Source: a virus
DNA length: 43,093 nt
Strand: one strand, 5' to 3'
IMG/VR virus record: IMGVR_UViG_3300029811_000147
Coordinates: 1-43,093 of that record
Shown: positions 4,016 through 21,934 of the stretch, piece after piece
How positions within the stretch are numbered: the stretch's first letter is position 1
Layout of the letters: the number at the start of each line of letters is the position of its first letter
Notes under the pieces: generated by a model
What the model saw: the letters and a program-made list of their open reading frames with translations, nothing else
Databases searched by the model: none
What the model was told of the DNA's origin: nothing
Position numbers and translations under genes: made by a program

Positions 4016-4336
4016 ATGGTAAAAACAAAAATTGCGTGTCCCTGCGGTATGGAGACCCACCTGGTCATGCTGGACGGCAAGTGGCATTACGATGTGGACA
4101 AGCACGGCAACGGGGAATTGGCTGAAGGATGCTTTAACTGCCGTGCACCTTTGAAAACCGAAGATGAGCCAGCCGAAGGGCCGGTTGTTACCGATAGAGG
4201 GCAGCCGAAAGCTCTCTCGGATATGACGAAATCATTGAAGACGGCAAAGACGAGCAGCCGGAAGCCAGCAAAGACGAGCAGCCGGAAGCCAGCAAAGACG
4301 AGCAGCTTGAAGCCGGAAATTCCGGGACAGTCATAG
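4016..4336 (+). CDS. Small Cys-containing (CPC...CFNC) protein with a KTSSRKPA x3 C-terminal repeat
   Basis: 106 aa. RBS agaggtga lies upstream of the ATG. The C-terminus is encoded by a 3 x 24-bp tandem repeat and the left arm of a family B element. Confidence 0.5.
   Translation: MVKTKIACPCGMETHLVMLDGKWHYDVDKHGNGELAEGCFNCRAPLKTEDEPAEGPVVTDRGQPKALSDMTKSLKTAKTSSRKPAKTSSRKPAKTSSLKPEIPGQS
4244..4315 (+). repeat. 3 x 24-bp tandem repeat, gcaaagacgagcagccggaagcca
   Basis: Read directly. In frame within CDS 4016..4336. Shares gcaaagacg with the core of family B elements. Confidence 0.9.
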
Positions 4337-4389
4337 TGGCAATGGCAAGAGCCATGCCCCTTGGCAAAGACGATGACAGTCCCGAATTT
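4317..4389 (+). repeat. Family B compound hairpin element, copy 1
   Basis: Left arm aaattccgggacagtca, centre tggcaatggcaagagccatgccccttggcaaagacg, right arm tgacagtcccgaattt. Confidence 0.9.
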
Positions 4390-4436
4390 AAGAAGCCGGA
4401 AGATACGGACGACGGCGAATAAAAGCATCAGAAGAA

Positions 4437-4457
4437 TTTTGAGTTTTGAATTATAGC
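4437..4457 (+). repeat. Family A heptamer array (ttttgag ttttgaa ttatagc)
   Basis: Read directly. Upstream of CDS 4493. Confidence 0.85.
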
Positions 4458-4492
4458 TAAAGGTTAAAAACTTTTTTGGGAAAGGACAAATT

Positions 4493-5278
4493 ATGAACAC
4501 TGAAGGACAGAATTATCAGGCCGGAGATTTCCTGGATTACACCCCGGCAGCGGTCAAGGTCGCCGGTGAAATGGTCCAGGTGGGCGGCCAGGCCGGTATG
4601 TGCGCCACCGTCATAGCGGCCAGTACCCTCGGGGCCTTACAGGTCAAAGGCGTTATCAAGGTCCGCGCTGCGGCGGTCACCGGTGGTGACGGGGACATTG
4701 TCGGATGGGACGAAGACGGGGACCCATACGGCGGAACGGCGGGAACGGGCGCTGCCACTACCATCCTGGCGGACGCCGATTTCCTGCTCGGCTCGTTAAG
4801 AAAGGCGCTAACGGCAACGGACGGCGAGGCCATCGTTAGTCTGAACGATTACGGGCACGTGCACATGACGCTGACAAAGATTACATCCGCCGAAATCCTG
4901 CTTCTGGCAACGACACAGAAAGAATTGATACCCGCGCCGGGGGCGGACAAGGTCACTCAGGTTTTGGGCATTCAAATGAGTCTGAATTACGGCTCGAACG
5001 TCTTTACCGAACCCTCGGCGCCGGATGACCTCGAGGTTGTTTACGATGCGGCCAGCGGCACCTCAATTGCCGATGTTTTAGGCGACTTCATTATAAGCAG
5101 CGCCGATACCATCGCCCAACCGCAAATAAAGGACATCGCAGGGGCGGCGGCAACGACGATGGTGAACAAGGCGGTGGTGCTCGACAACAACGGCACCGAC
5201 TACGGCGGCAATGCAGGAGACGATTCGGAACTTATCGTAATATGCACCTATGTAACTCACAGGGCAGGGTTAGCTTAA
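4493..5278 (+). CDS. Head decoration or cement protein; DUF2190-like N-terminal domain plus a C-terminal extension
   Basis: 261 aa. NYQAGDFLDYTPAAVKVAGEMVQVGGQAGMCATVIAASTLGALQVKGVIKV fits the DUF2190 pattern. Lies next to the capsid gene. RBS aaagga. Confidence 0.55.
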   Translation: MNTEGQNYQAGDFLDYTPAAVKVAGEMVQVGGQAGMCATVIAASTLGALQVKGVIKVRAAAVTGGDGDIVGWDEDGDPYGGTAGTGAATTILADADFLLGSLRKALTATDGEAIVSLNDYGHVHMTLTKITSAEILLLATTQKELIPAPGADKVTQVLGIQMSLNYGSNVFTEPSAPDDLEVVYDAASGTSIADVLGDFIISSADTIAQPQIKDIAGAAATTMVNKAVVLDNNGTDYGGNAGDDSELIVICTYVTHRAGLA

Positions 5279-5282
5279 TTTG

Positions 5283-5332
5283 CCTTTCCATTCTCCGCAG
5301 TACGACTGCGAAGGATGAATTATCGTTTCGGT
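5283..5332 (+). repeat. Element E copy 1, a 50-nt hairpin-containing element; inverted copy at 30011-30063
   Basis: cctttccattctccgcagtacgactgcgaaggatgaattatcgtttcggt equals the reverse complement of 30011-30063 except for 1 substitution and a 3-nt indel. Confidence 0.9.
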
Positions 5333-5384
5333 TGACGGGCCCCTGCGTTTGTCTGTGCCGAGCGGACGCGGGGGCGCTCGTCCT

Positions 5385-5410
5385 GAAATTCCGGGATAGT
5401 CCCGAATTTC
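5385..5410 (+). repeat. Family B minimal hairpin (gaaattccggga tag tcccgaatttc)
   Basis: The two arms are adjacent and form an 11-bp stem with one bulge. Confidence 0.8.
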
Positions 5411-5424
5411 ACGAGATACGAATT

Positions 5425-5799
5425 ATGACTACGTTGCGAGAACAAATAGCGATTGACCTGGCGGGGCTCGTCGATGAGGGCGAATTGAGTGAAGAAATCA
5501 GCTATACGCCCAAAGGCGGCGATGCCAAAACTATAAACGCTTTGGTCGGCCCGCTCGATACCGAAATCGAAGACGATGAGCTGGGCGAGACGAAGGTCAA
5601 GAGACGACGAATCGTCATACTTACCGATGCCGCCAGGGGAATAGCAGCACCGAAAATAAATGACCTTATCACCCTGGGCACCGATATATGGCGGGTCTCT
5701 GCGATCGAGGCGGAAGGGTTCGGTAAGGCGACGCTGTCAATAGTTCTGGGCGAGACCGAAAGTAAGCATCACGAACAGTATAAGCGGAAAATTGAATGA
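5425..5799 (+). CDS. Hypothetical virion protein (possible head-tail adaptor, by position only)
   Basis: The ATG at 5425 was chosen because the upstream part of ORF 5242..5799 is translated repeat and hairpin sequence. 124 aa. Confidence 0.5.
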   Translation: MTTLREQIAIDLAGLVDEGELSEEISYTPKGGDAKTINALVGPLDTEIEDDELGETKVKRRRIVILTDAARGIAAPKINDLITLGTDIWRVSAIEAEGFGKATLSIVLGETESKHHEQYKRKIE

Positions 5800-5844
5800 A
5801 AAAATTAGCCACAGATTACACGGATAAACACAGAAGGTGAAGTT

Positions 5845-6048
5845 ATGGCTTTAACAGAAGGTGATAAAGCGGAATGTAAAGAGATAGCAAGGGTAATCGT
5901 CAAAGAGGTCCTGGTGGAGCACATTGCAAGCTGCCCTCATGGAAAAACCCTATTGGCCAGCAAGATGTTTCTATTCGGTATTTGTGTAGGCAGTGGTTTT
6001 GCCGGCGGCAGTATGGCCCTTGCAATTGCAAGGGTAATCTTTGGATGA
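5845..6048 (+). CDS. Small membrane protein with one C-terminal TM helix
   Basis: 67 aa. RBS gaaggtga. Hydrophobic C-terminus MFLFGICVGSGFAGGSMALAIARVIFG. Confidence 0.5.
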   Translation: MALTEGDKAECKEIARVIVKEVLVEHIASCPHGKTLLASKMFLFGICVGSGFAGGSMALAIARVIFG

Positions 6049-6058
6049 TGGCGGCAAA

Positions 6059-6223
6059 ATGAAAACGATAAAGAAATTGTTAGATAAGCTGAGTTTGACC
6101 GCTCACGAATTGGCCTTGCGGGCGACTGAACCCGACGAGTTTATCGCCGTTAATGATTTGGAGATAGCCATCCACGAGGCAGAAAAAGTCTTTGAACGGA
6201 CGAAGGATATAAACGGAGAATAG
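6059..6223 (+). CDS. Hypothetical small protein
   Basis: First ATG in ORF 6041..6223, which opens with TTG. Weak RBS. Confidence 0.35.
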   Translation: MKTIKKLLDKLSLTAHELALRATEPDEFIAVNDLEIAIHEAEKVFERTKDINGE

Positions 6224-6226
6224 ATA

Positions 6227-6562
6227 ATGCAAATACGAGTAACGAAAGTATCTATTGAAGATGCCGGTGAGCGATTTCGGGGCAAGCTTCTCAATGTCAG
6301 GGTGAATCTAAAACTGTGGCCGGATGGTGTAGATATTAAAACGGCTCAGCCGGTCTTTGACCAGAACCTTGATACTAAGTATCCAACTGAAGTTGAGGGG
6401 AAGACCTCCGACGAGCTACGTCTTTGCTGGCGTGAAAAGACAAAAGAGGCACTTCGTATAATGGTCAAGAAATATAAAAACCAACAAACACAACAAACAC
6501 AAATTAACGAATTATCACCGGTAGTCGATGCTACCCTGGCAGAAATAAATATAGAGGAATAA
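6227..6562 (+). CDS. Hypothetical protein
   Basis: 111 aa. RBS ggag. Tightly packed with its neighbours. Confidence 0.5.
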   Translation: MQIRVTKVSIEDAGERFRGKLLNVRVNLKLWPDGVDIKTAQPVFDQNLDTKYPTEVEGKTSDELRLCWREKTKEALRIMVKKYKNQQTQQTQINELSPVVDATLAEINIEE

Positions 6563-6565
6563 GCT

Positions 6566-7180
6566 ATGGCGGATTTGACACCAGATAAAGGTCAATTGTT
6601 AGACTGGTCTGCATTAAATCCTGGAGGCGTTCTTGAATCAGGTGAATTGACGGAAAGCCAGAATGTCGATAGTGCACTTAGATTCTTCCTGCACATTGAT
6701 ATGGCACATAAAGATACAAACGCAGCAGGAGACCCTGCGGGATTCAAAATACTTATTAGTGCCGGTGATACCGACGAAGACTGGCATGAGATGGGTGTTG
6801 ATTACGAAGCCGATGGAGGTAGTGCTGTTTTACAAGCTTTGGCGGCGGCAAGCGGGCCGGGTCAGGCATACCCCGAACGTATTGAGCTTGCAGAAACATC
6901 TTACTTTGAGACTCCGGGGGCGTCTTTTTTCCTTCTGGACGACACAATTGTGAATTCGGAAGTGATTTATGTTAAAAGCTGGTCTGTGGATGATTATGTA
7001 AGGGCACTAGATAACCTCTCACAAGACCACGATGCGAGCGATAGTTTATCTACGATTCTCAACCGTTGGACAATCAGAATACCGACAATGCACAAAGCCA
7101 AGGTCCTCTTTTATGACAAAGATGACAATGCTGCCTATGCCTGCCGGGTTCAATGGTCGTGCTCAAAGGACATAGAATGA
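6566..7180 (+). CDS. Hypothetical protein
   Basis: 204 aa. RBS agagga. Its stop overlaps the next start (ATGA). Confidence 0.55.
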   Translation: MADLTPDKGQLLDWSALNPGGVLESGELTESQNVDSALRFFLHIDMAHKDTNAAGDPAGFKILISAGDTDEDWHEMGVDYEADGGSAVLQALAAASGPGQAYPERIELAETSYFETPGASFFLLDDTIVNSEVIYVKSWSVDDYVRALDNLSQDHDASDSLSTILNRWTIRIPTMHKAKVLFYDKDDNAAYACRVQWSCSKDIE

Positions 7181-7818
7181 AAAAGCCGTCCGTTTATATT
7201 GCTATTCTTAACACCGGGACAAAGAGAACGGAGTATGACAAGCTCATTATGCCCCGGATGATGGCCACTCCGGGAGTTGATGTGTTTTTAGAGAATCCGG
7301 TAAAGAGCCGTTCCGTGCCTGTTACAAGTAACCGGAACGGTATTTCCAAGCGATACAGGGCAGCTGACCACGATTATTTGCTGCTGCTGGATGATGACAC
7401 CGTCCCATTTGATAACCCTGTTGAACTGGTTTTTGCTAAAAAAGACATCATTGGCTGTCCATATCGAATATATCAGAATGGAAAGCTGTATTGGTCCGCC
7501 TGGATTCATAATGGTGAAGGATATGTTGCCGTAGATTTAGATAAAACTGTGTGCGGTGAACTGCTCGCAGTCGATGTAGTGGCGACTGGCTGTATTCTCA
7601 TTAAACGAAAAGTATTAGAGCAGTTAAAGGCTCCCTTTAATGCTGTTTTTGATGAGGACGGAATTCCTAAACTTGCGGAGGATTTTAACTTTTGTCGCAG
7701 GGCAAAGGAAGCAGGATTTGAGATATACACCACACCCAAAAGACGCTGTGAGCACTTTAAGACCGTAGGTGTGTACGGTTTGGAACAAGATATAAAGAAG
7801 CAATTACAAAAATGCTGA
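7177..7818 (+). CDS. GT-A fold glycosyltransferase (family 2-like)
   Basis: VYIAILNTG start, DxD-type motif YLLLLDDDTVP, then ATGCILIKRKVLEQL and EDFNFCRRAKEAGFEIY, all typical of GT2-like enzymes. Confidence 0.65.
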   Translation: MKKPSVYIAILNTGTKRTEYDKLIMPRMMATPGVDVFLENPVKSRSVPVTSNRNGISKRYRAADHDYLLLLDDDTVPFDNPVELVFAKKDIIGCPYRIYQNGKLYWSAWIHNGEGYVAVDLDKTVCGELLAVDVVATGCILIKRKVLEQLKAPFNAVFDEDGIPKLAEDFNFCRRAKEAGFEIYTTPKRRCEHFKTVGVYGLEQDIKKQLQKC

Positions 7819-8609
7819 CAAGACAAAAACCACAATTAGGGCAGTTGCCGGATTATACGAGGTTTCCTTGGCCTAACGCTCTCTGGCCGTTTATCAAGGC
7901 TGGAAATCTTATTGATTTGAGTGGGAATAAACTTACAGGGACTTTTAATGGCAACCCACAATGGATTGGTTCTGCGTTGGATTTGGATGGTACAGGGGAT
8001 TATGTTACTGTTGTCGATAATAACAAATTGGGTTTTCAGGGAGCAAATGACAATTTTACTATTATCGCTAAAATAAGACCTGATGTGATAAATGCACACC
8101 AAGGCATAGTTTATAAAGATGATTCAGAATTTGGCCCTACTAATGATGATTTTTGGAGAATGCACCTCTGGAGCGATAACAAAATCACGTGCTCTCTTGA
8201 TGCGATAGACTTTAGCTCGGCAACGGGCGTGTGTGCAGTTGGAGTGGATGTACACATTGCAGGTGTGTTTGATAAAAGTGGGTATGGACGGATTTACATA
8301 AATGGTGTAGCAAGTGGAACGCCAGTAGCTTTGAATAATGAAATTCTTAACCTTGCTACCCAGAAAATTTATATTGGTCATCATCACCCTGACTCAGGTG
8401 GCGATTTTGATTTTGATGGTCTAATATATTATGTAATGATTCTTCCCTTTGCTCTCACAGCCCAACAAATCACCTATCTCTACCAACATCACTTTCCTTG
8501 GTTTGAGGAGGACCCGGTTAGCCATTTGTATGTGCCGGGGGCACCGCCGACCGTTAAGCCTGCTTGGTATTATAATCAAATGACGGCAATGATGAGGAGG
8601 TCAGCGTAA
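7812..8609 (+). CDS. LamG / concanavalin A-like lectin-fold protein
   Basis: DLSGNKLTGTFNGNPQWIGSALDLDGTGDYVTV...FTIIAKIRPD...HIAGVFDKSGYGRIYINGV is a classic Laminin_G_3 pattern. Confidence 0.7.
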   Translation: MLTRQKPQLGQLPDYTRFPWPNALWPFIKAGNLIDLSGNKLTGTFNGNPQWIGSALDLDGTGDYVTVVDNNKLGFQGANDNFTIIAKIRPDVINAHQGIVYKDDSEFGPTNDDFWRMHLWSDNKITCSLDAIDFSSATGVCAVGVDVHIAGVFDKSGYGRIYINGVASGTPVALNNEILNLATQKIYIGHHHPDSGGDFDFDGLIYYVMILPFALTAQQITYLYQHHFPWFEEDPVSHLYVPGAPPTVKPAWYYNQMTAMMRRSA

Positions 8610-9811
8610 TGTGGATGGATGTCGATGCAGCACTTACGGAAGTTCCAGTCAATTGTGTCGCTCTTATTGATGATACGGATTTCAAAACCAGAGAAGAATC
8701 GGTAGCTTATAATGCAGCCGGCCTCGAACTTATTTGGCATTTTACAACAACAGCGGGAGTTACAACAGCAACCGTAGTGACGCCTACGACCGGAGGAGAT
8801 TATGACTGGGCACATCAAGATGGTGGACTATATACTATTGAAATCCCCGCCAGCGAGGGAGCGTCTATTAACAACGATACGGAAGGTTTTGGGTTCTTTT
8901 CAGGTGTTGCCGATGGCATTCTTCCCTGGTCTGGGCCGATTATAGGTTTTCGTGATGCCAACCTGAATAACCTATTGATTGACTCTGCATATAGTACAAC
9001 ACGAGGACTTGCCGGAACCGCCCTACCTGCCGCTGTCGCTGACGCCCCTGGTGGATTGCCGATAAGCGATGGCGGCGGGCTGAACCTCGATGGTGAGTTT
9101 ACAGCCCTTTCTGATTATGTAGATGCGTTAGAAATACGACTTACTGATGCACGTGCAGGGTATCTCGATAAACTAAATGTCGCCGGCACGTTAGCTCATA
9201 GTGATGCGGCTTCTACATATAAGGCAACCGGTTTTGGTCCTGCTAACGAATACGATGACGCCCTTTCAGCAATTGCGGGATATGTTGATGAAGAAATTAC
9301 AAACATTATTGACGCGATTGCCGCCTTGAATAATATCACAGCACAGGAAGTAAGGGACGCTATGAAGCTGGCCCCATCTGCTCCCGGGCCTTCCGCCGGT
9401 TCAATCGACAAACATTTGGATGACATTGTTGAAGACACTAACGAAGTACAAGGACTGATTGCCGATTCAAAGGTGGCCGCCCAGGTTAAAGGGATGGACG
9501 ATGATGTGATAAGTGCGGGCAAATACAACGAAACCGATGCCTTCCCTGTCTCGGAAAAACAAAGTAAGGCCGCCTCGACGATTGCAGAAGGCACGGTAGT
9601 TGCCGATGCTGGAAACAGCACTACGCAATTCAAGACCAATCTGACTAAGACTGATAACGATTTTTATAAGGATGGGATAGTCAAGTTTAGTTCTGGAAAT
9701 ATGTTTGAGCAGGGCACGGAAATAACTGCTTACAATGGAACTACTAAAATTCTTACCGTTGTTGCGATGACACAAACTCCGGCAGCGGACGATGAATTTG
9801 TGATTATGTAA
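8609..9811 (+). CDS. Hypothetical virion protein (fibre or decoration candidate)
   Basis: 400 aa. Strong RBS aggagg. TAATG overlap with the upstream gene. Confidence 0.55.
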   Translation: MWMDVDAALTEVPVNCVALIDDTDFKTREESVAYNAAGLELIWHFTTTAGVTTATVVTPTTGGDYDWAHQDGGLYTIEIPASEGASINNDTEGFGFFSGVADGILPWSGPIIGFRDANLNNLLIDSAYSTTRGLAGTALPAAVADAPGGLPISDGGGLNLDGEFTALSDYVDALEIRLTDARAGYLDKLNVAGTLAHSDAASTYKATGFGPANEYDDALSAIAGYVDEEITNIIDAIAALNNITAQEVRDAMKLAPSAPGPSAGSIDKHLDDIVEDTNEVQGLIADSKVAAQVKGMDDDVISAGKYNETDAFPVSEKQSKAASTIAEGTVVADAGNSTTQFKTNLTKTDNDFYKDGIVKFSSGNMFEQGTEITAYNGTTKILTVVAMTQTPAADDEFVIM

Positions 9812-9812
9812 T

Positions 9813-10034
9813 ATGGCACAGAAAACGGAATTATCTGCGTTGGCTTTGCCGGGGCCGGTCCACAGCTTCAGTGCAAAAGAGGAAGCGGTGCCCTCGGTGG
9901 TTTTTAGGATGTGTGGGTCGATTAGTAATGAGTCGAAATTCGCAGGTGCGGTCTCGAACGAGCCGAAATTCGCAGGGACAGTCAGTAACGAGCCGAAGTT
10001 CGGCGGAGAGGCTGGTTCGGTTGAATGTGATTAA
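9813..10034 (+). CDS. Doubtful ORF; its C-terminal half is a 3 x 10-aa repeat encoded by family B-like DNA repeats
   Basis: No RBS. SNESKFAGAV / SNEPKFAGTV / SNEPKFGGEA are encoded by 3 x 30-bp repeats. Confidence 0.25.
   Translation: MAQKTELSALALPGPVHSFSAKEEAVPSVVFRMCGSISNESKFAGAVSNEPKFAGTVSNEPKFGGEAGSVECD
9923..10012 (+). repeat. 3 x 30-bp tandem repeat related to the family B left arm
   Basis: gagccgaaattcgcagggacagtca resembles aaattctgggacagtca. Confidence 0.85.
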
Positions 10035-10045: not shown

Positions 10046-10133
10046 AAATTCTGGGACAGTCATATAAATTCGATAAATTCTGGGACAGTCATAAAAGACG
10101 TTGACAGTCCCGAATTTATATAGTCCCGAATTT
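10046..10133 (+). repeat. Family B element, copy 3 (two left arms and two right arms, no GC-rich centre)
   Basis: aaattctgggacagtcat at 10046 and 10075. ttgacagtcccgaattt at 10101. tagtcccgaattt at 10121. Confidence 0.9.
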
Positions 10134-10149: not shown

Positions 10150-11064
10150 ATGAGTAAATTGTTAATCAATACGGACAATGTAAAAAAGTGGCTGGGGCTG
10201 AAGGACGCTGAGTCCGGCGACTACGGCGATGATACGATAACGGTCAAGATGTCGCTTTTCGAGGACCCGGCCCTGCCCGTCAATAACGCGGCGGCGGCCA
10301 CGCGCGAGCTGCAGACGCTGCTGCCGGACGTGCCGGCGACTGCAGGGACGTGGACGCTGACCTACGAGGGCAAGGATGAGACAAAAACAACGGCGGCAAT
10401 TGACTGGGATGCTACGACGGGGGACGTTCAGGATGCCTTGGAATTACTATCGAATATAACGGCGGGCGATGTGACGGTCGAAGGCGCTCCGCTCGATATG
10501 GACCCCGTGGCCGGCGGTATGACGTTTCTGTGGAAGGACACGTTAGGCGACGTCAACCTGCTCAGCTTCGACTTTACATCCCTGACCGGACCCACACAGG
10601 CCGCCTCGACGATGACAGAGACCGTCAAGGGCGTCCTCAAGGGCGTCGCAGTCGATGAGGGAGGCGGTAAGGTCGGCATACCGGTAATCGGTCATGGCCG
10701 CGTTGCAGGCGATTATGTCCGTATCGAATGCTCGAGGAAATACAACGCCGAATATACAATCGACAGCGTTACAAACGATAAGATTGTCATTACCGCAACC
10801 TACGTCGCCGAGACATTCAAGGGTACGGAGCGGGTCTATCTCGGCGTTCCGAACGGCACGAATATAGCACTGCCCTACGTCACCGCATCCGATGGTAATT
10901 ATCGCGGGGTACTACCGTATACGCTCGAAGGACTCATCGAGTACGGCACTTCGCTGGTGGCGAGCGATGAGGTAAAGGGTAAGTATTTTCTGTTTATGTG
11001 GGCGGCGAAAGATACGAGTAAGGCCACGAAACGAATAGCGATGCGGGCGGAATACGATGAGTAA
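10150..11064 (+). CDS. Virion protein; N-terminus resembles gp6-like head-tail connectors, followed by an extra domain
   Basis: 304 aa. LINTDNVKKWLGLKDAESGDYGDD resembles the gp6-type connector N-terminus. Assignment rests mainly on position. Confidence 0.45.
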   Translation: MSKLLINTDNVKKWLGLKDAESGDYGDDTITVKMSLFEDPALPVNNAAAATRELQTLLPDVPATAGTWTLTYEGKDETKTTAAIDWDATTGDVQDALELLSNITAGDVTVEGAPLDMDPVAGGMTFLWKDTLGDVNLLSFDFTSLTGPTQAASTMTETVKGVLKGVAVDEGGGKVGIPVIGHGRVAGDYVRIECSRKYNAEYTIDSVTNDKIVITATYVAETFKGTERVYLGVPNGTNIALPYVTASDGNYRGVLPYTLEGLIEYGTSLVASDEVKGKYFLFMWAAKDTSKATKRIAMRAEYDE

Positions 11065-11070
11065 AAAGAT

Positions 11071-12471: not shown

Positions 12472-12478
12472 GAAGTAG

Positions 12479-12506
12479 TTTTGAATTTTGAGTTTTGAAT
12501 TTTGAA
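12479..12506 (+). repeat. Family A heptamer array (ttttgaa ttttgag ttttgaa ttttgaa)
   Basis: Starts 7 nt after the stop at 12469-12471. Precedes the RBS of CDS 12526. Confidence 0.9.
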
Positions 12507-12525
12507 TTAAAAAAGGAGAATACAA

Positions 12526-13026
12526 ATGCATTCGGCAAAATTTAATATCGGCCTGACAATGGCCAGCGAAATCATCGATGAGATGAGTAAGCTCAGTGAT
12601 TATCTCAACCAGAGCCGCGGCGTTACCTTTACCGAGGGCGAAGGGGCGGGCCAGATAAACCAGATATTCCATGACCAGCGAGAGCTGGCGGACGGGGCGA
12701 ACGAGACGCTCGATTTCCACGATGGCAGCCTGACGAACAAGGTACAACAGGCCATATCAATGGACAAGTTCAAGGCCATATACGTAAAGAACAATTCGAC
12801 GGACTCGACCTTGATAATCGGCAACGCCGCCAGTAATCAGCTCGCACTGTTCGGGGCCGTTACACACACGCATGTAATTCGGCCCGGCGGAGATTGCCTG
12901 CTAACAGCACCCGATGCAGACGGTATTGATTGTACCACGAATGCCAAGCTGAAGTTCGAGCACGGTGGTGAAGGGACGTCGGCACCGAAGTATGACCTGA
13001 TTACCGCCGGCGTGGCCGTGGCGTAG
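12526..13026 (+). CDS. Hypothetical tail-module protein
   Basis: 166 aa. RBS aaggag. Confidence 0.55.
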   Translation: MHSAKFNIGLTMASEIIDEMSKLSDYLNQSRGVTFTEGEGAGQINQIFHDQRELADGANETLDFHDGSLTNKVQQAISMDKFKAIYVKNNSTDSTLIIGNAASNQLALFGAVTHTHVIRPGGDCLLTAPDADGIDCTTNAKLKFEHGGEGTSAPKYDLITAGVAVA

Positions 13027-13027: not shown

Positions 13028-13166
13028 GAAATTCTGGAAATTCTGGGACAGTCATAATGGCAATGGCAAGAGCCATGCCCCTTGGCAGAGCCATGCCCCT
13101 TGGCAAAGACGTTGACAGTCCCGAATTTCGTTGACAGTCCCGAATTTCGTTGACAGTCCCGAATTT
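13028..13166 (+). repeat. Family B element, copy 4; the largest, with a duplicated centre and three tandem right arms
   Basis: Left arm at 13038. agagccatgccccttggca occurs twice. ttgacagtcccgaattt at 13112, 13131 and 13150. Confidence 0.95.
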
Positions 13167-13190: not shown

Positions 13191-13976
13191 ATGAGCGGAT
13201 TTATTTATGCGATAGAAGACGTTAAAATGGTCAGCTCCCGGCAGCTCGAAGATGCGGGGCTGGGCGGTATCTTCGATAAGGTGGAAATAGCGCAGCGATA
13301 TTCTGCTGCAGGACCGGGCGGTAAAGAATGCGTTTTGTTCGCGGCGGCGGACATCGACGTTAAGCTGCTTTACTTCAAGCCGAATGAGCAGACGTGGAAG
13401 AAGAGTATTAACGGCAAATTTCATGTCGGCTTCTATAAGGACTCGCCGCCGACTGAAAAGACGCTTCGCCGCAAAAAACAACTGGCAGGTCACGAAATCG
13501 AATTGGCGGACCCCTGCCAACAACAAGCAGGGGCAGGCGGCGAAAAGTGGCTCGTGCCGGTGGCGAGGATAATTACGGGCGGCTCAGCGCTACCGCAATC
13601 GCTTATTTTAGGTAAAGACGGTGAAGTTGTTACGGAGGCCCTGCCGAAGTATGCCCGATTCTCCAGTAAGGTCGAAAAGCTGTGGGAAGACTTTCAGTGC
13701 GAAAATAACTGGAAGGAGGGACAGCCGAAACTGACCGTTAAAGAACGGATGGAGCTGGCGATTGAGGCGCTGGCCTGGAACTATAAGGTCGGCGCCGACG
13801 AGGTCAACCTGCTGAAATTGATAACCACGGAGAACCTCAGCGAGATAATAGCGGCCGTAATCGACGTGCCGACGTTAATCGAGGTATCGAAACAGATGAA
13901 GGACGAAAAAAAAAACACAGAGGATGTAAGCACAAACGATGGCTCGAATTCCGGCAGTGGAAGCTCGGACTCTTAA
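13191..13976 (+). CDS. Hypothetical tail-module protein with an acidic, Ser-rich C-terminus
   Basis: 261 aa. RBS aaaggtga. Confidence 0.55.
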   Translation: MSGFIYAIEDVKMVSSRQLEDAGLGGIFDKVEIAQRYSAAGPGGKECVLFAAADIDVKLLYFKPNEQTWKKSINGKFHVGFYKDSPPTEKTLRRKKQLAGHEIELADPCQQQAGAGGEKWLVPVARIITGGSALPQSLILGKDGEVVTEALPKYARFSSKVEKLWEDFQCENNWKEGQPKLTVKERMELAIEALAWNYKVGADEVNLLKLITTENLSEIIAAVIDVPTLIEVSKQMKDEKKNTEDVSTNDGSNSGSGSSDS

Positions 13977-14025
13977 AAGGATATTGTCCCACGTGCGCGG
14001 ATTTGTGCTGGCTGGGGATGGAGTA

Positions 14026-14062
14026 GTAATTGGTAATTGGTTAATTGGTGATTGGTTAATTG
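14026..14062 (+). repeat. Family C heptamer/octamer array (gtaattg gtaattg gttaattg gtgattg gttaattg)
   Basis: Read directly. Contains TTGGTAA-type units, which are the reverse complement of the array at 38867. Confidence 0.85.
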
Positions 14063-16125: not shown

Positions 16126-16129
16126 AATT

Positions 16130-16504
16130 ATGAGCAGTATCGGCAACTTAAATTTTATCCGAATGACGGGGCCGCAGGTGCCGAAACTGGCGGCGGCGGT
16201 CGAGATAATCGATAGGACGGGCGTCGATGGTACGGCCAGCAGAATCGATGCGCTCAAGGCGGCCGAAATAAATAAGTTCACCGTGCAGGGCGTAGAGACA
16301 CTCAATATAGCGAACGCGGCGGCGGACACCTACGCCAGCTACAAGGGAACGCACGTTACCGTCGTCGATGATTTGGGCCGGACGGTCAATAGCGTGCTCG
16401 TCGTTGACGTCAGAGTAACGAGCGTTCAGCATACGCCGGTCTCTGACCCGGCGGCCATTAACTACCTGGTGCGGGCTGCGTGGGTGCTGAAACCGACACA
16501 ATAG
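16130..16504 (+). CDS. Small tail protein (sits where lambda gpM-like minor tail proteins sit)
   Basis: 124 aa, directly after the tape-measure-like gene. RBS ggtgga. Confidence 0.45.
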   Translation: MSSIGNLNFIRMTGPQVPKLAAAVEIIDRTGVDGTASRIDALKAAEINKFTVQGVETLNIANAAADTYASYKGTHVTVVDDLGRTVNSVLVVDVRVTSVQHTPVSDPAAINYLVRAAWVLKPTQ

Positions 16505-16555
16505 TTTTGAATTTTGAGTTATAACTAATAATTAAAAATTAAGAACTAAAAACTA
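16505..16555 (+). repeat. Family A array with inverted right arm (ttttgaa ttttgag ttataac taataattaaaaattaagaactaaaaacta)
   Basis: Fills the whole gap between the stop at 16502-16504 and the ATG at 16556. Confidence 0.9.
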
Positions 16556-19378
16556 ATGGTGACGGCGGTCTATTATAAATGGGAATGGAAGGGCCGGTGG
16601 ATTTATGCGCCGTATATCACGCCGATTTCGGCGACCAAGACGGCGGCGCCCGCCATAGCAACGGCAACGTTCAAGCTGCTGTACGGACAGGGGACGTGGG
16701 AAGACTTTACCCGAATGAAGGACGGCGGCCTGCTTTCGAGCTTCGCATACTGCTATATCCAGATACGCGGCAGGGACGGCGCCAGTGAAACTATTCTCTG
16801 GACGGGAATTGTGCCGGCGGAGACGTTTCAGCTTCTGGGTAAAGGAAGCACGGGAAAGAAGGTGGACCAGGTCCTGCAGGCGTACGGACTGGACATGCTT
16901 TTAGAGAGTCGGCCGGACGGCGCCCGGGTGAAACGTGGTACCACCAAGCCGGTCTGGATAGATTATTTGCCGACGTTCAACCGCCGCTACGAGTACGGAG
17001 GCGGCATCGTCGGTAATCGCTCCGACCAACAGATTGAAGGGGCAAGCGATGTGTATGTCTTTTCCGATGAAGGTAACGATTGGACTAATTACGACATTAT
17101 AAAGTATCTCTTAAAATACTATCAGCAGGACAACGGACCGCAATTTTTCTTGGGCAAGAAATTAAAAGGTTTGATCGGATTCAAATGTGTAAGCTGCGGC
17201 AAGACATACGATTATAAACCGGAGAAATGCGAGAGATGCAGCGGCAGTAACTTCAAAAGAATTCGTCTGCCCAGGATAGAGAACGAAGAGGCGGACATAA
17301 ACGAGGCGCTGGATAAGATTGTCGGCGTCTATAATTTCAGCAGCCAGACCGTTCGCAGCGCCCTTAACGTTCTGATAAATCAAGGCCGCGGGTTTTCGTG
17401 GACATATACCGTCGATAGCGACAACAACGTCGAAATCGTGCCGTTCAGTCTGCTCGATAAGGAGATGACGCTCGGCGACGTTACGATGCCGGCGAACAAG
17501 AACAAGGTAGCGCTGGACCTGTGGGAAAACAAGATGCACACCACCGTCAACGTCATCCAGGACACGATGCATACCTACGATAAGATAGTGGTGCGCGGGG
17601 CGAGAATGAAGTGCTGCTGCACGCTGCGACCGATACAGGGCTATAAGGACAGTGAAGGGGAGATTCAACTGTTACCGCCGTCCATCGAGAAAGGCTGGAC
17701 GGAGGCCGAGGAGACGGCGTATAAGAACGCGGCGAAGAATACGGAAGGATACGATGAGCTTGACGATTATGCAAAGGCGGAATTGAATGATAAGTTCCGA
17801 GCGGTGGACAGGTTCTCAAGGGTCTTCACGACGTTTAGAATACCGCACGACTGGGACTGGACTATATGGACGATGCCGGAAGAAGGCAAGGACCCCTCGT
17901 TCGAGCTGGTCAATCCGAAACTGGATTCGTTAGGCAATATTACGAAAGAGCAGGCGGCGTATTTTAACGTCGATAAGAGGCTGCTTACGTTTGTGCCGTT
18001 AAAGGTCGGCGTCGATTATAGTAATTATGCGAAAGATGAGAACCCAATTAACTCCGAGCCGGAATTCCGCAAGCTCTTTGTTTTGGTCAAGGACCGCAGC
18101 GGCAAATACCAGTACGCCGAGAAATTAGAGAACCCGGCGATAATCAGGCCCTTAATGAGGGAGATGGGACTGGAGATGCGGTTCAGACCGGCCTACTTAG
18201 CGGCGCTGAACCACTGGGCGGACGCCGAGCCGGGACAGACAGCGGTCGGAGGAGAACTTGAATATACCGAAGGGCTGGGAATCGATTACGAGACGATGAT
18301 TGCCACGGTCTTTATCGAGACCGACCAGCACGTCCAGTTAAGCTATAACTTAACTAATTACGAGAACAAACGGGTGCTTACAATAGATATACCCGACGCC
18401 GAATTGTGGTATATCGTGCCGGGTACGATAGTTGATATTGACGCTGGCGGGAAGCTTGTCGAAGATAAGTGCTGGCCTTTTTTAAGGGACGATTGCGGCC
18501 GAATGCGGTCAGCGCTGACGGCGGCCGTCGGCTGGTACGGCAGGCGCCATAACAAGGTCAATATAACCGTTAAGGCAATTGAATCGGGGCCGGAGCTCGG
18601 GACGCTGATTGACAACGTTGACGTCGCCGGGGTAGGGGCGGCAGGCTCGGTGGTAACGGCCGTAAGCTGGAACTTTCAGAACAGGCCGCCAACGACGACT
18701 ATACAGACCGATTTCGCCGCGCTTAATATCGCGGGCATATTCGGACTGGGCGGCTCGCCAAGGGGAGGGACGGCGGGGACGCCGGGCCCGCTAACGGCCG
18801 CCAGGAAAATCGATACGCTCGAAAAAGATGTAAATGCAATCAAAACCGAATTAGGTAAATCGCCGCTTAGAATAGAAACCGGCGGGGGAGCGAGTACGGG
18901 CATCCTTGCGAAGATAACCGAGTCGCTTCGGCGGGCGGACGAAACAGCGGAAGAACCGGAAGACAGAGAGGCCGTCGAGAATTACAAGATAAAGCTGCTC
19001 GGCGGAGCGATTATCGATGAATGGGCGGCGGATTATGGCCAATATACGGCAGGTGATATCGCCAAATACGGCGAAAAGGATTACGATTACAAATGCCTCG
19101 TAACACATAACAGCGAGGAGGCAAAGAAGCCAACGAATACGACGTTCTGGAAAGAGCTCGGCGCCGGGCTGGATGCATGGGTTTCGGGATACGCAGGAGA
19201 AAATCTGCTCGAGACGCTCCCCTGGTTCCAAATAGACGACATCGTAGAGGTCGAATACCATTCGGGTAAATGGTGGATCAAAGAGACGGCGACGAAAGTG
19301 GAAGTAGTAGAAGATGATGAGATTCATTGCTCCCTTGCCTGGAACGAAACGGATGAGCGGGCGATGGGAGTGTTCTGA
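16556..19378 (+). CDS. Large tail, baseplate or receptor-binding protein with an inserted zinc ribbon and a C-terminal CBM5/12-like motif
   Basis: 940 aa. Contains CVSCGKTYDYKPEKCERCSGSNF. YTAGDIAKYGEKDYDYKCLVTHNSEEAKKPTNTTFWKELG fits the chitin-binding type 3 (CBM5/12) pattern. Confidence 0.6.
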   Translation: MVTAVYYKWEWKGRWIYAPYITPISATKTAAPAIATATFKLLYGQGTWEDFTRMKDGGLLSSFAYCYIQIRGRDGASETILWTGIVPAETFQLLGKGSTGKKVDQVLQAYGLDMLLESRPDGARVKRGTTKPVWIDYLPTFNRRYEYGGGIVGNRSDQQIEGASDVYVFSDEGNDWTNYDIIKYLLKYYQQDNGPQFFLGKKLKGLIGFKCVSCGKTYDYKPEKCERCSGSNFKRIRLPRIENEEADINEALDKIVGVYNFSSQTVRSALNVLINQGRGFSWTYTVDSDNNVEIVPFSLLDKEMTLGDVTMPANKNKVALDLWENKMHTTVNVIQDTMHTYDKIVVRGARMKCCCTLRPIQGYKDSEGEIQLLPPSIEKGWTEAEETAYKNAAKNTEGYDELDDYAKAELNDKFRAVDRFSRVFTTFRIPHDWDWTIWTMPEEGKDPSFELVNPKLDSLGNITKEQAAYFNVDKRLLTFVPLKVGVDYSNYAKDENPINSEPEFRKLFVLVKDRSGKYQYAEKLENPAIIRPLMREMGLEMRFRPAYLAALNHWADAEPGQTAVGGELEYTEGLGIDYETMIATVFIETDQHVQLSYNLTNYENKRVLTIDIPDAELWYIVPGTIVDIDAGGKLVEDKCWPFLRDDCGRMRSALTAAVGWYGRRHNKVNITVKAIESGPELGTLIDNVDVAGVGAAGSVVTAVSWNFQNRPPTTTIQTDFAALNIAGIFGLGGSPRGGTAGTPGPLTAARKIDTLEKDVNAIKTELGKSPLRIETGGGASTGILAKITESLRRADETAEEPEDREAVENYKIKLLGGAIIDEWAADYGQYTAGDIAKYGEKDYDYKCLVTHNSEEAKKPTNTTFWKELGAGLDAWVSGYAGENLLETLPWFQIDDIVEVEYHSGKWWIKETATKVEVVEDDEIHCSLAWNETDERAMGVF

Positions 19379-19382
19379 TTAG

Positions 19383-19422
19383 TTTTGAATTTTGAGTTTT
19401 GAATTTTGAGTTATAACTAAAA
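19383..19422 (+). repeat. Family A heptamer array (ttttgaa ttttgag ttttgaa ttttgag ttataac taaaa)
   Basis: Lies between the stop at 19376-19378 and the ATG at 19423. Confidence 0.95.
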
Positions 19423-21822
19423 ATGTTCTGGTGGGAAAAAGCTAACTGGCCTGCGAAGAAAATGGACGAGGTCCTTCATCCGTTCTTCGAGGACATTCGC
19501 AAGCTCATTTTTTTGCTTGAGAACCCAGCAGCCGGTAATTTCGATATTTACAGGTTCTTCGGTAAAAGCCTCGATGGTAATATTACCTACGTTCCTTACG
19601 ATGAGCAGAACTGGGCCGGCTCATGGGCGGGGTACGCACCGCCGAACCTGGCCAAGCCGGGTGAAATAACCGTTGTCTATAAAGACCATACCGGCGCCGA
19701 AGATATTTACGTGAACTGGATTGAGATGTCGGAAGCGGGCCTGGAGAACCATCCGCCAATACAATCGGACAATACGCTCGATAAGAGGTACTGGCGGCTT
19801 ACCACGAACCCGAATTACTACTGCCATTACAACCACAATGCGGGCAAGCCGAAAATAAAGGCGGACGGCAGATACTTCGTAATCCACCACGCCGAAAAAA
19901 GCGAATTAGGCCAGGTGGTTTACGAGGCATACGATTATCGCGATTATGCTTACAAGTGGCTGCCGCGTCATACGCATCCTGAGCGGCAGGTAGCGCCCGT
20001 CAAATACAAATCAGGTATAGTAAAACAGCGCAGAGACCCAGCATTGTACGGGGTTGAAAAGAAACACAAGTATATCACACAGAACCTCGGCACCCAATGG
20101 CCCAGGGACTATGCAGATGTATATCGGCGGCTGACCGAATATGTAAAGGAATTTACAGAGCCCAGGGACGAGGCCGTGGAATTGGCGAAGCAGTTTGCGC
20201 ACGATGCCAAGATGTGCGAGGCCTACCAGGACCGGGCAATACGTACTATAGAGCATGAGCAGCAATACCTTGCAAAGGTCGACCAGACCTATATCGACGC
20301 CTGGACGCGCCGACAGGGGACCGAATATAATTCAGGTACAGAATACTTTAGCGGGACAGAACAATGGGCCACTCCTGCCAGCATAGTTTATCCTCCGGGT
20401 GGAGGTGCTGAGGGGACGCGTTATCTCTGTATTAAAAGAAATACAGGAAATCCGCCGCCGAACCCGACGTACTGGACTACGCCGGCCTATCGGCCGGATT
20501 TGTGTATATACCAGCCGGTCTATGATGCGCCCGGCGTTGATGTTGCCGGCAAATTATACGGCGCACGCTTTTTCTGCTGTAACGGCAGTGCGTTCGAGAA
20601 AGTGCTCAAAGAAGTCGGCCATTACGATTGGTGGTGGGACTCCGCCTGTCCTTTCGTACCCAGGGTATTAACCGACCTGCGCGAAGTGTATCCCCCGGCT
20701 GAGTGGCCACTGCCGTGCGGATGCTGGCGGAGGACGTGGCGGCATTCGATGGGCAGGGTCGGGGCGCTCATGTGGCCGGGGGAATCAGGAGAACCGCCGG
20801 AATATTACCCGGCCCATTGGAGCGTGACGCAGGCGGTTTACGATGCAGCGAACAACCCGACCAATTACAGAGTCGTCAATAACCCGCCCGACTTTACGCT
20901 GACCGAAGAGCAGGAAGAAGCGCTAAAGAAAAGACATGACCCCAGGGCGGTCAGTACGGCAAAAGTAAACGGCGCCACAATCATCGAGCCGCATTACGAG
21001 CTCCATCACGATTTGGTCAATGATATTTACGATGCATTGAAGGAGCTCAAGCTGATTGACTGGACGTACCCCAGCTGGTGCTGGGTAAAGTCCGGAACGA
21101 ATACTAATTCAGGGGAGTATCGTGATTCGAGCCTTACGGCATACGCAGCAGGCAGACTTTCGGCCATCGCAGCCAGGGCCTGGCCCTGGCCGAACCCGAA
21201 CGGCTGGGAGGGGGGGATGGAAGAAACATTCGGATATGACACGGAGGTGCGATGCCATGAAAATGCGCCTCTCGGCCCCCCAAAATATAATCCGGACTTG
21301 GTAATTATATTAGATGAGTTTGCACTGTGCCTGCGCGTTCCGAAAACAGGGCTTCTGCCCGGTATGCTGTCGGGACGGCTGCTTCTGCGCGTAGCCTGGC
21401 GGGGTATAAATACCCCGAATAGTATTAAGCGTTATACCGAATGCGTATTCGGATTCGGGGACAAGACGCTGGTGGGTGTCCCCGGCGATATAGAATGGAA
21501 TTACGCGTGGGTGGCGCTGCAGCCTGGAACCGTCGTAGAGAGTGATGACTTTTACAACTATTATTGGTTTTATGGTCACGTACTTTCACCGTGGCCTTAT
21601 ACGGAGAAAGGCGGATGGATGGACTGGGTATGGGCGTCGGATGATTATGTCAGGTATGCTATCAGCCAGATTGAAATCAGAGTGCCCGGCTGGCCGGGAA
21701 CGGCGAATCCAGATCTACGGACGAGTATAGATAAGCGCTCCATATTCGAGATTGACTGGGACAAGGCGCCGAAGTCGGTGTTTACAGAGCTGGGAACGAA
21801 TGCGATTGAATTAAAGAAATAA
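19423..21822 (+). CDS. Large tail or fibre protein with a CBM5/12-like motif
   Basis: 799 aa. WATPASIVYPPGGGAEGTRYLCIKRNTGNPPPNPTYWTTP resembles CBM5/12. Trp/Tyr-rich. Confidence 0.55.
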   Translation: MFWWEKANWPAKKMDEVLHPFFEDIRKLIFLLENPAAGNFDIYRFFGKSLDGNITYVPYDEQNWAGSWAGYAPPNLAKPGEITVVYKDHTGAEDIYVNWIEMSEAGLENHPPIQSDNTLDKRYWRLTTNPNYYCHYNHNAGKPKIKADGRYFVIHHAEKSELGQVVYEAYDYRDYAYKWLPRHTHPERQVAPVKYKSGIVKQRRDPALYGVEKKHKYITQNLGTQWPRDYADVYRRLTEYVKEFTEPRDEAVELAKQFAHDAKMCEAYQDRAIRTIEHEQQYLAKVDQTYIDAWTRRQGTEYNSGTEYFSGTEQWATPASIVYPPGGGAEGTRYLCIKRNTGNPPPNPTYWTTPAYRPDLCIYQPVYDAPGVDVAGKLYGARFFCCNGSAFEKVLKEVGHYDWWWDSACPFVPRVLTDLREVYPPAEWPLPCGCWRRTWRHSMGRVGALMWPGESGEPPEYYPAHWSVTQAVYDAANNPTNYRVVNNPPDFTLTEEQEEALKKRHDPRAVSTAKVNGATIIEPHYELHHDLVNDIYDALKELKLIDWTYPSWCWVKSGTNTNSGEYRDSSLTAYAAGRLSAIAARAWPWPNPNGWEGGMEETFGYDTEVRCHENAPLGPPKYNPDLVIILDEFALCLRVPKTGLLPGMLSGRLLLRVAWRGINTPNSIKRYTECVFGFGDKTLVGVPGDIEWNYAWVALQPGTVVESDDFYNYYWFYGHVLSPWPYTEKGGWMDWVWASDDYVRYAISQIEIRVPGWPGTANPDLRTSIDKRSIFEIDWDKAPKSVFTELGTNAIELKK

Positions 21823-21848
21823 CGTGAAACGTGAAGCGACGAACAACG

Positions 21849-21934
21849 AAATTCTGGGACAGTCATAATGGCAAGAGCCATGCCTCTTGGCAAAGACGTT
21901 GACAGTCCCGAATTTCGTTGACAGTCCCGAATTT
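21849..21934 (+). repeat. Family B element, copy 5
   Basis: aaattctgggacagtcat, then ggcaagagccatgcctcttggcaaagacg, then ttgacagtcccgaattt twice. Confidence 0.95.

Follow-up and report, generated by a model that had tools for sequence, protein, structure and literature searches.

Small palindromic repeats, such as repetitive extragenic palindromic (REP) sequences, miniature inverted-repeat transposable elements (MITEs) and Rickettsia palindromic elements (RPEs), are known mainly from bacterial chromosomes, and both their origin and their movement are debated, especially when no dedicated transposase is at hand. This question is posed by a hairpin-forming repeat, here called Family B, which lies at five loci in the structural operon of a phage genome from IMG/VR (record IMGVR_UViG_3300029811_000147, positions 1 to 43,093; this whole stretch of 43,093 nucleotides (nt) is hereafter termed the window). 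Are its copies signals of the late messenger RNA (mRNA), or pieces of DNA that can be inserted at new sites? A preliminary description, made from the letters alone, had proposed processing sites of the RNase III type, attenuators, stabilisers or a miniature mobile element. With moderate confidence, we regard Family B as a lineage-restricted, small, insertable palindromic DNA repeat, similar to REP sequences and MITEs, which colonises the spacers between stop codons and ribosome-binding sites (RBSs) and is transcribed as stem-loops. This kind of element is not new; Family B is an unusually clean case of it, in which phage and host are linked, an empty site exists, growth is nested and a progenitor can be proposed.

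A filled and an empty site in the chromosome of the probable hosts

The window corresponds to a complete phage genome of ~42.95 kb with 49.6% guanine plus cytosine (GC). Its ends share an exact overlap of 141 bp (1-141 versus 42953-43093), which indicates a circularly assembled or terminally redundant genome. Among GenBank phages, there is no nucleotide match to it. Homologues of its capsid fusion protein, with up to 71% identity, are present on metagenomic contigs and in metagenome-assembled genomes (MAGs) of Phycisphaerae; the host of the phage therefore probably belongs to the Phycisphaerae.

Outside the phage, Family B was found at a chromosomal locus of two MAGs, i.e., the Phycisphaerae CSMAG_1493 and a MAG labelled Pirellulales, which are up to 95% identical at the locus and have 49% GC. 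The host unit, AAAATTAGGGACAGTCATAAAAGACGTTGACAGTCCCGAATTTTC, is identical to copy 3 of the phage over 36 nt, loop included (10082-10117 in the window, the inner part of that copy). It is located between a gene for an MBL-fold hydrolase and a gene for a DMT/EamA transporter, 22 nt upstream of the start codon of the latter, and its orientation relative to transcription is opposite to that of the phage copies.

The same neighbourhood, with transporter orthologues of 88% amino acid (aa) identity, exists without exactly 45 nt, GAAAATTCGGGACTGTCAACGTCTTTTATGACTGTCCCTAATTTT, at loci L049-L053. The alignment reads ...AAACG|AAGGCACACAG... at the empty site versus ...AAACG[45 nt]AAGGCACACAG... at the filled one, and the flanks can be aligned on both sides. 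Family B is a discrete presence/absence insertion in the chromosome of the probable hosts of the phage: the precise 45-nt indel is the hairpin itself, which lends direct support to the miniature mobile element that the preliminary description had offered as an alternative. The comparison of filled and empty sites, ACG|[45 nt]|AAGG, reveals no duplicated target bases. Since the element is also absent from two loci with more distant transporter orthologues (73-77%), its presence is the derived state. The number of copies at the host locus is 0 (L049-L053), 1 (L010, L018, L030) or 2 (L038, L039), and the two doubled loci arose through different tandem duplications, each of them bounded by microhomology. 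Across four filled host lineages, not one of the 45 nt is substituted, in spite of flanks that diverge by 6-10%. At one doubled locus (L039:1030-1113), a (GACAGAA)n array adjoins the insertion.

A modular hairpin unit

The basic unit is an imperfect hairpin of 45 nt: (G)AAATTC-T-GGGAC-A-GTCA, loop TAAAAGACGT, TGAC-A-GTCCC-GAATTT(C). Its left (17 nt) and right (16 nt) arms are terminal inverted repeats. The copies at the five phage loci are ~95% identical, a similarity that points to a recent spread. The two arms pair through 6+5+4 = 15 bp, interrupted by a bulged T and an A.A mismatch, which is the same pairing previously counted (about 15 bp, one bulge and one mismatch). As for the stem, internal bubble and stem architecture also attributed to the element, the irregularities of the stem amount to the 1-nt bulge and the 1x1 mismatch, and differ from an internal bubble of the T7 type. 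Both arms contain, in direct orientation, the quasi-palindromic heptamer GACAGTC.

The right arm, GACAGTCCCGAATTT, has nine sites on the + strand with up to two mismatches (at 4375, 5395, 10103, 10119, 13114, 13133, 13152, 21901 and 21920); shuffled sequences lead to an expectation of 1.3 sites, and none of 100 shuffles reached nine. The left arm, AAATTCTGGGACAGTCA, has six sites on the + strand (4317, 5386, 10046, 10075, 13038 and 21849) versus 0.11 expected from shuffles. These counts are far above expectation. The five loci of the preliminary description stand at the coordinates given there, and so does its statement that all copies have the + orientation, as every left-arm and right-arm site is on that strand.

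When the phage and host copies are aligned, a modular construction emerges, with a short form, a long form that differs from it by an insertion in the loop, and a number of stutters. Long copies consist of the short unit with a GC-rich near-palindrome of 24-48 nt (TGGCAAGAGCCA|TGCCYCTTGGCA) placed between the loop TAA and AAGACGT; this inner module, earlier reported for three copies, was found in copies 1, 4 and 5. In addition, long and compound copies contain tandem duplications of 6, 9, 18, 19 and 29 nt: (i) ATGGCA is repeated twice in copies 1 and 4; (ii) copy 4 presents an 18-nt duplication, and AAATTCTGG twice; (iii) the 19-nt unit CGTTGACAGTCCCGAATTT occurs three times in copy 4 and twice in copy 5; and (iv) copy 3 has a 29-nt duplication of the left arm. 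The local amplification of arms had been correctly described, with three tandem right arms at 13112-13166 and two left arms at 10046 and 10075.

The five phage copies and their genes

Four phage copies occupy the short stretch that separates a stop codon from the next ribosome-binding region. The claim that the copies sit just after the stop codons of late genes is right in so far as they are mostly intercistronic; it does not apply to copy 1, which is inside a coding sequence, nor to copy 2, which is 106 nt past the stop codon.

Copy 1 (4317-4389, + strand) is a long form with its left arm at 4317-4333, the GC module at 4337-4366 and the right arm at 4374-4389. It lies in the 3' part of a Zn-ribbon/acidic-tail gene, downstream of the capsid gene. 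The frame opened by the ATG (frame 0) ends at a TAG (4334-4336) within the left arm, but codon usage prefers frame 2 (4198-4422), which reads through the whole element as ~24 aa: the scores for the read-through versus the ATG frame are 21.5 versus 4.8 bits upstream of the copy, and 7.8 versus -3.9 within it. The acidic tail that holds the copy is variable among relatives. According to codon usage and composition, the gene (4016-4422) switches frame near 4195 (shift at ~4190-4198), with the N-terminal domain in the ATG frame and the acidic repeats and C-terminus in the -1 frame; a sequencing indel, a recent frameshift and programmed frameshifting are all conceivable causes of this change. A supposed 10-bp target duplication around copy 1, GAAGCCGGAA, was discarded, as the motif opens every 24-nt coding repeat unit. 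Excision of 83 nt would restore the ATG frame, but codon usage backs the other one and, being ambiguous, this duplication was not used as evidence.

Copy 2 (5385-5410, + strand) is the minimal form, AAATTCCGGGATAGTCCCGAATTT, and is matched with 30 bits by R1, a covariance model built from the Family B copies. It ends 14 nt before the ATG at 5425 of a head-tail attachment gene, a start codon backed by PF05354 coverage and by a 124-aa orthologue in a related phage locus (L045). Judging from its letters, copy 2 may be a full copy that collapsed between two direct GACAGTC heptamers and underwent one C>T change.

Copy 3 (10046-10133, + strand) is a nested double hairpin without the GC module. It comprises a left arm L1 (10046-10062), a partial arm (10066-10072), a second left arm L2 (10075-10091), the loop TAAAAGACGT, a right arm R1 (10102-10117) and a truncated R2 (10119-10133), and ends 16 nt before the ATG at 10150 of the tail tube gene. 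The most expanded copy is copy 4 (13028-13166, + strand), which starts 2 nt past a stop codon (13024-13026), with a 9-nt stutter of the left arm (13029-13037), the left arm (13038-13054), a GC module (13058-13105) in which 18 nt are duplicated, and three 19-nt units of the right arm in tandem (13111-13166); it ends 24 nt before the ATG at 13191. Copy 5 (21849-21934, + strand) has a left arm (21849-21865), a GC module (21869-21892) and two tandem right-arm units (21898-21934). Its stem is lengthened by CAACG/CGTTG, it is preceded by CGTGAAA/CGTGAAG heptamers (21823-21848), and it ends 21 nt before the ATG at 21956. The leaders that follow the copies are of two types: two are Shine-Dalgarno (SD)-like, AAAGG, and two are ACGAGAnACGAA.

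Distribution in phages and bacterial genomes

Twelve related phage loci, which share 60-87% aa identity in the capsid or tube protein, were fetched via the capsid protein (L004-L008, L041-L044) and the tube protein (L045-L047, 77-87% identity). None of them contains Family B according to a mismatch scan or to model R1, diverged copies included. At the same junctions there is almost no spacer, or else unrelated tandem heptamer arrays or hairpins; the conserved intercistronic positions that had been attributed to the element find no counterpart in these loci. The heptamer arrays of relatives often precede an inverted array, giving a periodic hairpin, and some arrays do not fold at all. For instance, (GACAGAR)4...(TCTGACW)4 stands upstream of the tube gene in L046 (z -3.5), a GTCAGAR array downstream of the tube gene in L047 (z -5.3), and ACGTGAA/CCACGAR heptamers at a junction of L045. 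In the window itself, 10 of the 11 late operon spacers of at least 40 nt hold the heptamers of a second repeat family (Family A, described below), another heptamer array or Family B. As the junctions of relatives carry other elements, Family B is one occupant of a fast-evolving slot rather than a conserved signal. A trait of this clade of Phycisphaerae phages is that heptamer arrays or hairpins, fast-evolving and placed just upstream of start codons, occupy nearly every spacer of the structural operon.

Elsewhere, Family B is scarce. GenBank phages contain no copy; in IMG/VR, a scan with the right arm gave three single matches that were judged to be chance, the inner module gave nothing, and the core hairpin gave only a doubtful coding match (L048 = L040). 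The latter (L040:2236-2286, - strand, equal to L048:10386-10433, - strand) belongs to a secreted-protein gene on an unrelated contig of higher GC, an IMG/VR uncultivated viral genome (UViG). It carries GGGACAGTCATA, 26 nt and TGACAGTCCCGAA in frame (NGTVIDTPVWGFCIDSPEL), in the same reading frame as copy 1; only cores of 12-13 nt match, which may be chance (~0.05 expected) or a distant in-frame relative.

Bacterial and archaeal chromosomes were covered with one genome per species (185,579 genomes) and the exact 18-nt right arm, a search that misses diverged copies. The 29 matches are about the number expected by chance; three of them are genuine elements with a left arm, and these represent one chromosomal locus in two related Planctomycetota MAGs, i.e., the locus described above. 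The other 26 are chance matches or lie within a conserved Latescibacterota gene, and a generic host REP was rejected as an identity. The preliminary description had suggested such a search of host genomes; the arm proved not to be abundant in unrelated genomes. A scan of metagenomes with the whole hairpin retrieved the same host locus twice more (L038 and L039), together with one doubtful coding match.

Folding, strand and covariation

Minimum free energies were compared with those of dinucleotide shuffles (200 per locus). The z-scores of copies 1-5 are -4.5, -2.9, -5.0, -3.8 and -5.7, respectively; four of the five loci beat all 200 shuffles and the remaining one beat 199, so that the comparison with shuffled controls previously proposed comes out in favour of a genuine fold. 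The minus strand folds equally well or slightly better and, in consequence, folding does not discriminate the strand or the molecule concerned. A consistent strand asymmetry of folding energy, taken as a test of selection on RNA, is present neither in Family B nor in the hairpins of relatives. Covariation among copies, another suggested check, yielded no compensatory change, and 11 of the 15 pairs never vary; the copies are too similar for this test to be informative.

The helices of Family B hairpins range from 12 to ~30 bp, with 20-30 bp in compound copies. In copies 3, 4 and 5 the extra arms are placed in such a way that nested pairing is possible, and the most gene-proximal right arm of copies 4 and 5 is unpaired. 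Rfam gave nothing over the whole window at gathering thresholds and, at E<=1 over 9.9-13.25 kb, only a chance match to a small nucleolar RNA (snoRNA). Two further identities were rejected: (i) an intrinsic terminator, as there is no U-tract (only three U follow the stem, and they are paired with the left arm) and a consensus scan calls none; and (ii) a sigma-70 promoter based on the TTGACA of the right arm, for which the scan gives no call and no -10 element stands at a usable distance.

An insertable palindrome or a signal in the mRNA?

An insertable palindrome of the REP, MITE or RPE kind is the reading to which the following observations lead: (i) the comparison of filled and empty sites; (ii) the narrow range, limited to one phage and one tight host clade; (iii) the lack of synteny; (iv) the stuttered, modular growth; and (v) the varied contexts, which are intergenic at four loci, an in-frame coding tail for copy 1, and, in inverted orientation, a 5' region in the host. 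Such a unit would spread as hairpin-forming DNA, either via an enzyme acting in trans or via template switching during replication, and hairpin-induced slippage would generate its compound architecture. As the late genes are co-oriented and tightly packed, each copy is presumably transcribed and forms a stem-loop in the polycistronic mRNA. Some effect on the stability, processing or translation of mRNA segments is likely. In any case, protection of 3' ends, processing or an influence on downstream translation would be a secondary consequence, possibly co-opted, and not the reason why the family exists.

Several observations weigh against this reading. There is no target-site duplication at the host insertion, nor do consistent direct repeats flank phage copies 2-5. 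No transposase was found in the phage, which has neither an HUH/Y1 enzyme nor an RNase III detectable with Pfam. The number of copies is low (five phage loci plus one host locus). The five phage copies share one orientation, which is unexpected for a passive palindrome, although with p about 0.06 this is weak evidence. At four phage loci the right end stands 14-24 nt before the next start codon, and in the host the distance is 22 nt; so constant a distance suggests a target preference or selection for position. Finally, the invariance of the 45 nt in four host lineages hints at purifying selection (hence, function) or recurrent homogenisation.

Part of these observations would be explained if the stem-loops were selected cis-elements of the late mRNA, that is to say, RNase III-type sites, 3'-end stabilisers or attenuators which set protein doses, with mobility as nothing but their route of arrival. 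We consider this possible, though rather unlikely as the main explanation; an adaptive role as an RNase III-type site or stabiliser is, moreover, compatible with an insertable palindrome. It agrees with the stable folds, the co-orientation of all phage copies with transcription, their intercistronic location at a constant 14-24 nt before start codons, the 20-30 bp helices of compound copies, and the host copy that stays invariant between diverged flanks. Furthermore, in sister phages the corresponding slots are taken by other arrays that form hairpins, several of them with z -3.5 to -5.3, which suggests that the slot itself wants structure. Nevertheless, since the slots of relatives often contain non-folding direct-repeat arrays or no spacer, hairpin punctuation is not conserved. 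The absence of compensatory changes (with 11 of 15 pairs invariant), the minus strand that folds as well or better, the lack of G.U pairs marking the RNA strand, the inversion of the host copy relative to transcription, the position of copy 1 within a coding region, the missing U-tract with a silent terminator scan, and the lack of a match to any Rfam family also count against it. By analogy with the extended start-associated sequences (ESAS) of cluster K mycobacteriophages, or with heptamer repeats ahead of start codons, the unit and above all its unpaired extra right arms just upstream of the RBS might instead act after transcription, as a binding or standby platform for ribosomes or an RNA-binding protein. 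The distance to the next ATG (14, 16, 24 and 21 nt in the phage and 22 nt in the host), the extra right arms that are always gene-proximal, the Family A arrays in the equivalent slot of other genes, and published precedents without an assigned function (PMC3203893; PMC4679880) speak for such a platform. It appears quite improbable, given that the inverted host copy turns its other arm towards the gene, copy 1 is not associated with a start, the leaders are of two types (SD-like AAAGG versus ACGAGAnACGAA), and the observed spacing may be the sole place that tolerates an insertion.

Explanations that invoke double-stranded DNA fare worse. Each arm might be one asymmetric site for a phage or host regulator, in the manner of a stoperator, and it is true that the arms are more conserved than the loop content, that single arms have multiplied into direct repeats whose period is 19 bp, and that the phage is temperate, as judged from its integrase gene. 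But no dimeric operator is compatible with distances between arms that range from 3 to 58 nt; besides, the sites are confined to five junctions of the late operon, their nested arrangements preserve pairing, and no candidate binding protein was identified, all of which makes regulator sites very unlikely. Less credible still, indeed almost negligible, is that the GC module of long copies serves the downstream tail genes as a sigma-54-type promoter (TGGCA-N7-TGC). All three long copies contain TGGCAAGAGCCATGC (4343-4357, 13064-13078 and 21869-21883), gene-oriented and with the GG-N10-GC spacing; however, the three sites are one motif copied thrice, which agrees with the consensus at only ~10 of 14 positions, is missing from the short copies and from the host copy and recurs in no other intergenic region (two intragenic matches only), and no gene for an enhancer-binding protein was found in the phage. 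Recombination sites were rejected outright. An attP/attB or Xer/dif-like site does not agree with five copies inside an operon, more than 3.6 kb from either recombinase gene and without the 11-6-11 architecture; for shufflon or invertase sites the spacers are too short, and inversion between loci would break the operon.

Comparison with known systems

Family B fits no defined family of palindromic elements. In the RNase III sites of T7, a sizeable internal loop separates an upper from a lower stem, and the positions of the sites are conserved among T7-like phages. As a family of mutually related irregular hairpins between cistrons of a phage polycistronic mRNA, they resemble Family B, which in turn has only a 1-nt bulge and a 1x1 mismatch, at positions that relatives do not conserve. 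MITEs, such as the Correia/nemis elements of Neisseria and the ERIC elements of Yersinia, have terminal inverted repeats, insert near the starts and ends of genes and are co-transcribed as hairpins that alter the processing or stability of mRNA. Family B shares with them the terminal inverted repeats, the near-identical copies (five loci) and the presence/absence polymorphism, but is much smaller (45-nt core) and lacks a target-site duplication at the one testable site. We know of no autonomous insertion sequence related to it. RPEs are chromosomal elements of 100-150 bp, present in many copies, which can be in-frame and translated. Copy 1 of Family B similarly appears to be in-frame in a coding gene and translated; by contrast, it is the only intragenic copy of the five in the phage.

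RPEs are mentioned together with REP sequences by Di Nocera et al. (2013; PMC3733652), where the latter and their composite forms (bacterial interspersed mosaic elements, BIMEs) are described as short imperfect palindromes with a GTAG or CGTC tag, of high copy number and thought to work as RNA hairpins and to be mobilised in trans. Like them, Family B consists of imperfect palindromes in the spacers of co-transcribed genes, with mosaic compound arrangements and an occasional intragenic location (PMC3733652). It is a short extragenic palindrome as well, with a 45-nt core slightly above the canonical 20-40 bp, and with four of the five phage loci and the host locus being intergenic. The differences are the following: (i) neither of its ends, G|AAATTC...GAATTT|C/A, bears a GTAG or CGTC tag, and a GACG is present only inside the loop; (ii) its copy number in the host is not high, as the search for the exact 18-mer in 185,579 species genomes led to a single locus; (iii) it has 17-nt arms and a 10-nt loop instead of stems of 8-9 bp with loops of 4-5 nt; and (iv) it is mainly carried by a phage. 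Pfam and PHROG scans of phage open reading frames (ORFs) of ~100 aa or more revealed no REP-associated tyrosine transposase (RAYT; Y1/HUH). As for the ESAS of cluster K mycobacteriophages, they are imperfect inverted repeats of 17 bp, which enclose a spacer of variable length and stand, all in the same orientation, just upstream of start codons; they are tied to a 13-bp start-associated sequence (SAS) that includes the RBS, belong to the non-structural half of the genome, and related phages keep them at orthologous genes (Pope et al., 2011; PMC3203893). The length of the inverted repeat, the variable spacer, the 14-24 nt to the ATG and the single orientation in the phage are all reminiscent of ESAS. 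Nonetheless, no common SAS-like motif follows Family B (the leaders fall into two unrelated types), and the element is found in the structural operon and is absent from orthologous positions in relatives.

A possible origin in a coding repeat

The preliminary description had also listed a degenerate coding-frame version of the element at 9923-10012. This segment does not fold (z -0.75) and is not a version of Family B: it encodes a genuine decapeptide repeat, NEPKF[AG]G, which is kept at the protein level, with different codons, in relatives free of Family B (L045 and L047). As the protein repeat exists there with different codons, the coding repeat is older than the element. It belongs to ORF 9813-10034, which ends 11 nt upstream of copy 3. 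The second repeat unit of this ORF (9953-9978, + strand; CCG AAA TTC GCA GGG ACA GTC AGT AAC) matches the left arm in CGAAATTC and, after 3 nt in the gene versus 1 nt in the arm, in GGGACAGTCA. On the strength of this match, the DNA of the decapeptide repeat may be the progenitor of the arm, or its partner in gene conversion.

A more far-reaching scenario, which is doubtful at present, would have the unit born de novo in the phage lineage from the coding repeat of ORF 9813-10034 (CGAAATTC..GGGACAGTCA). Having become mobile, it would have spread through the late operon, jumped from phage to host and been kept invariant upstream of the transporter gene. Family B would then be a cis-regulatory hairpin that can be transferred, which a specific factor of the host or the phage recognises and which ties host gene expression to the control of phage late mRNA. 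In any case, with five copies of a 45-nt unit in a 43-kb phage and one polymorphic insertion in the host, it becomes possible to test directly how such elements are born, spread and pass between phage and host.

Other spacer elements and features of the phage genome

Family A consists of two to five tandem RRTTTTG heptamers, after which GTTATAAC/ATTATAGC usually stands and, in some cases, inverted CTAAAAA/TTAAAAA heptamers. It is found on the + strand in spacers upstream of start codons, at 3950-3987, 4435-4472, 12476-12523, 16496-16549, 19374-19427, 22943-22996, 25025-25078, 36794-36831, 37166-37219 and 38156-38193. Some copies abut the ATG without an SD sequence, and only some fold significantly. 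Direct heptamer repeats (TAACTGA) upstream of start codons have been described, without an explanation, elsewhere (PMC4679880); Family A resembles repeats of this type, and L047 carries the TAACTGA heptamer itself. Every related phage has its own arrays in the spacers of the structural operon (GACAGAR, GTCAGAR, TAACTGA, ACGTGAA, GATTGAR, GAGTGAAT and others), often paired with an inverted array to form periodic hairpins with 4-bp stems and 3-nt loops (L046:1-68; L047:40-95 and 996-1105; L045:5218-5304 and 8676-8758; L042:6640-6766; L041:3516-3596; and L006:14390-14886). A 16-nt sequence, CGTGAAACGTGAAGCG, is common to the window (21823-21838) and L045 (5221-5236), at non-syntenic junctions.

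Three other spacer elements of the window can be mentioned. Five heptamers (GTAATTG/GTTAATTG/GTGATTG; 13977-14059) fill the spacer before an ORF that starts with TTG at 14060. A third repeat of ~55 nt, with the hairpin CCGCAGTACG(ACT)ACTGCG, occurs in two inverted copies of ~95% identity: one (5285-5338, + strand) in the spacer before copy 2 of Family B, and the other (30010-30066, - strand) directly upstream of a ParB-like gene at 30072. Lastly, behind the decoration (Phage_cement_2) gene there is a strong GC-rich hairpin, both in the window (5338-5384) and in all relatives (L041:4837-4922; L042 after 8003; L043:11806-11892; L004:13444-13532; and L006:13946-14017). Its position and structure are conserved while its sequence differs, and no other spacer structure of the operon seems to keep its position in this way; the hairpin may serve as an attenuator or terminator behind the capsid genes.

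Regarding gene content, the phage genome encodes a portal protein, a fusion of prohead protease and major capsid protein, a GpA-type large terminase and a tail module. Other genes encode two tyrosine recombinases, a ParB-like protein, an HTH replication protein with internal iterons, and an HNH endonuclease. The iterons, five repeats of 22-23 bp (AAAAAYGYCWATACCYATTAAC) at 28898-29032, lie within the gene of the HTH_36 replication protein (28620-29450), and this cluster is probably the replication origin. Further repeats of the genome are (i) a 199-nt direct duplication (92%; 36343-36541 versus 37210-37408) which spans two small ORFs of the early region; (ii) a 122-nt internal repeat (84%; 2456-2577 versus 2645-2766) in the protease/capsid fusion gene; and (iii) three 24-nt coding repeats at 34697-34770.

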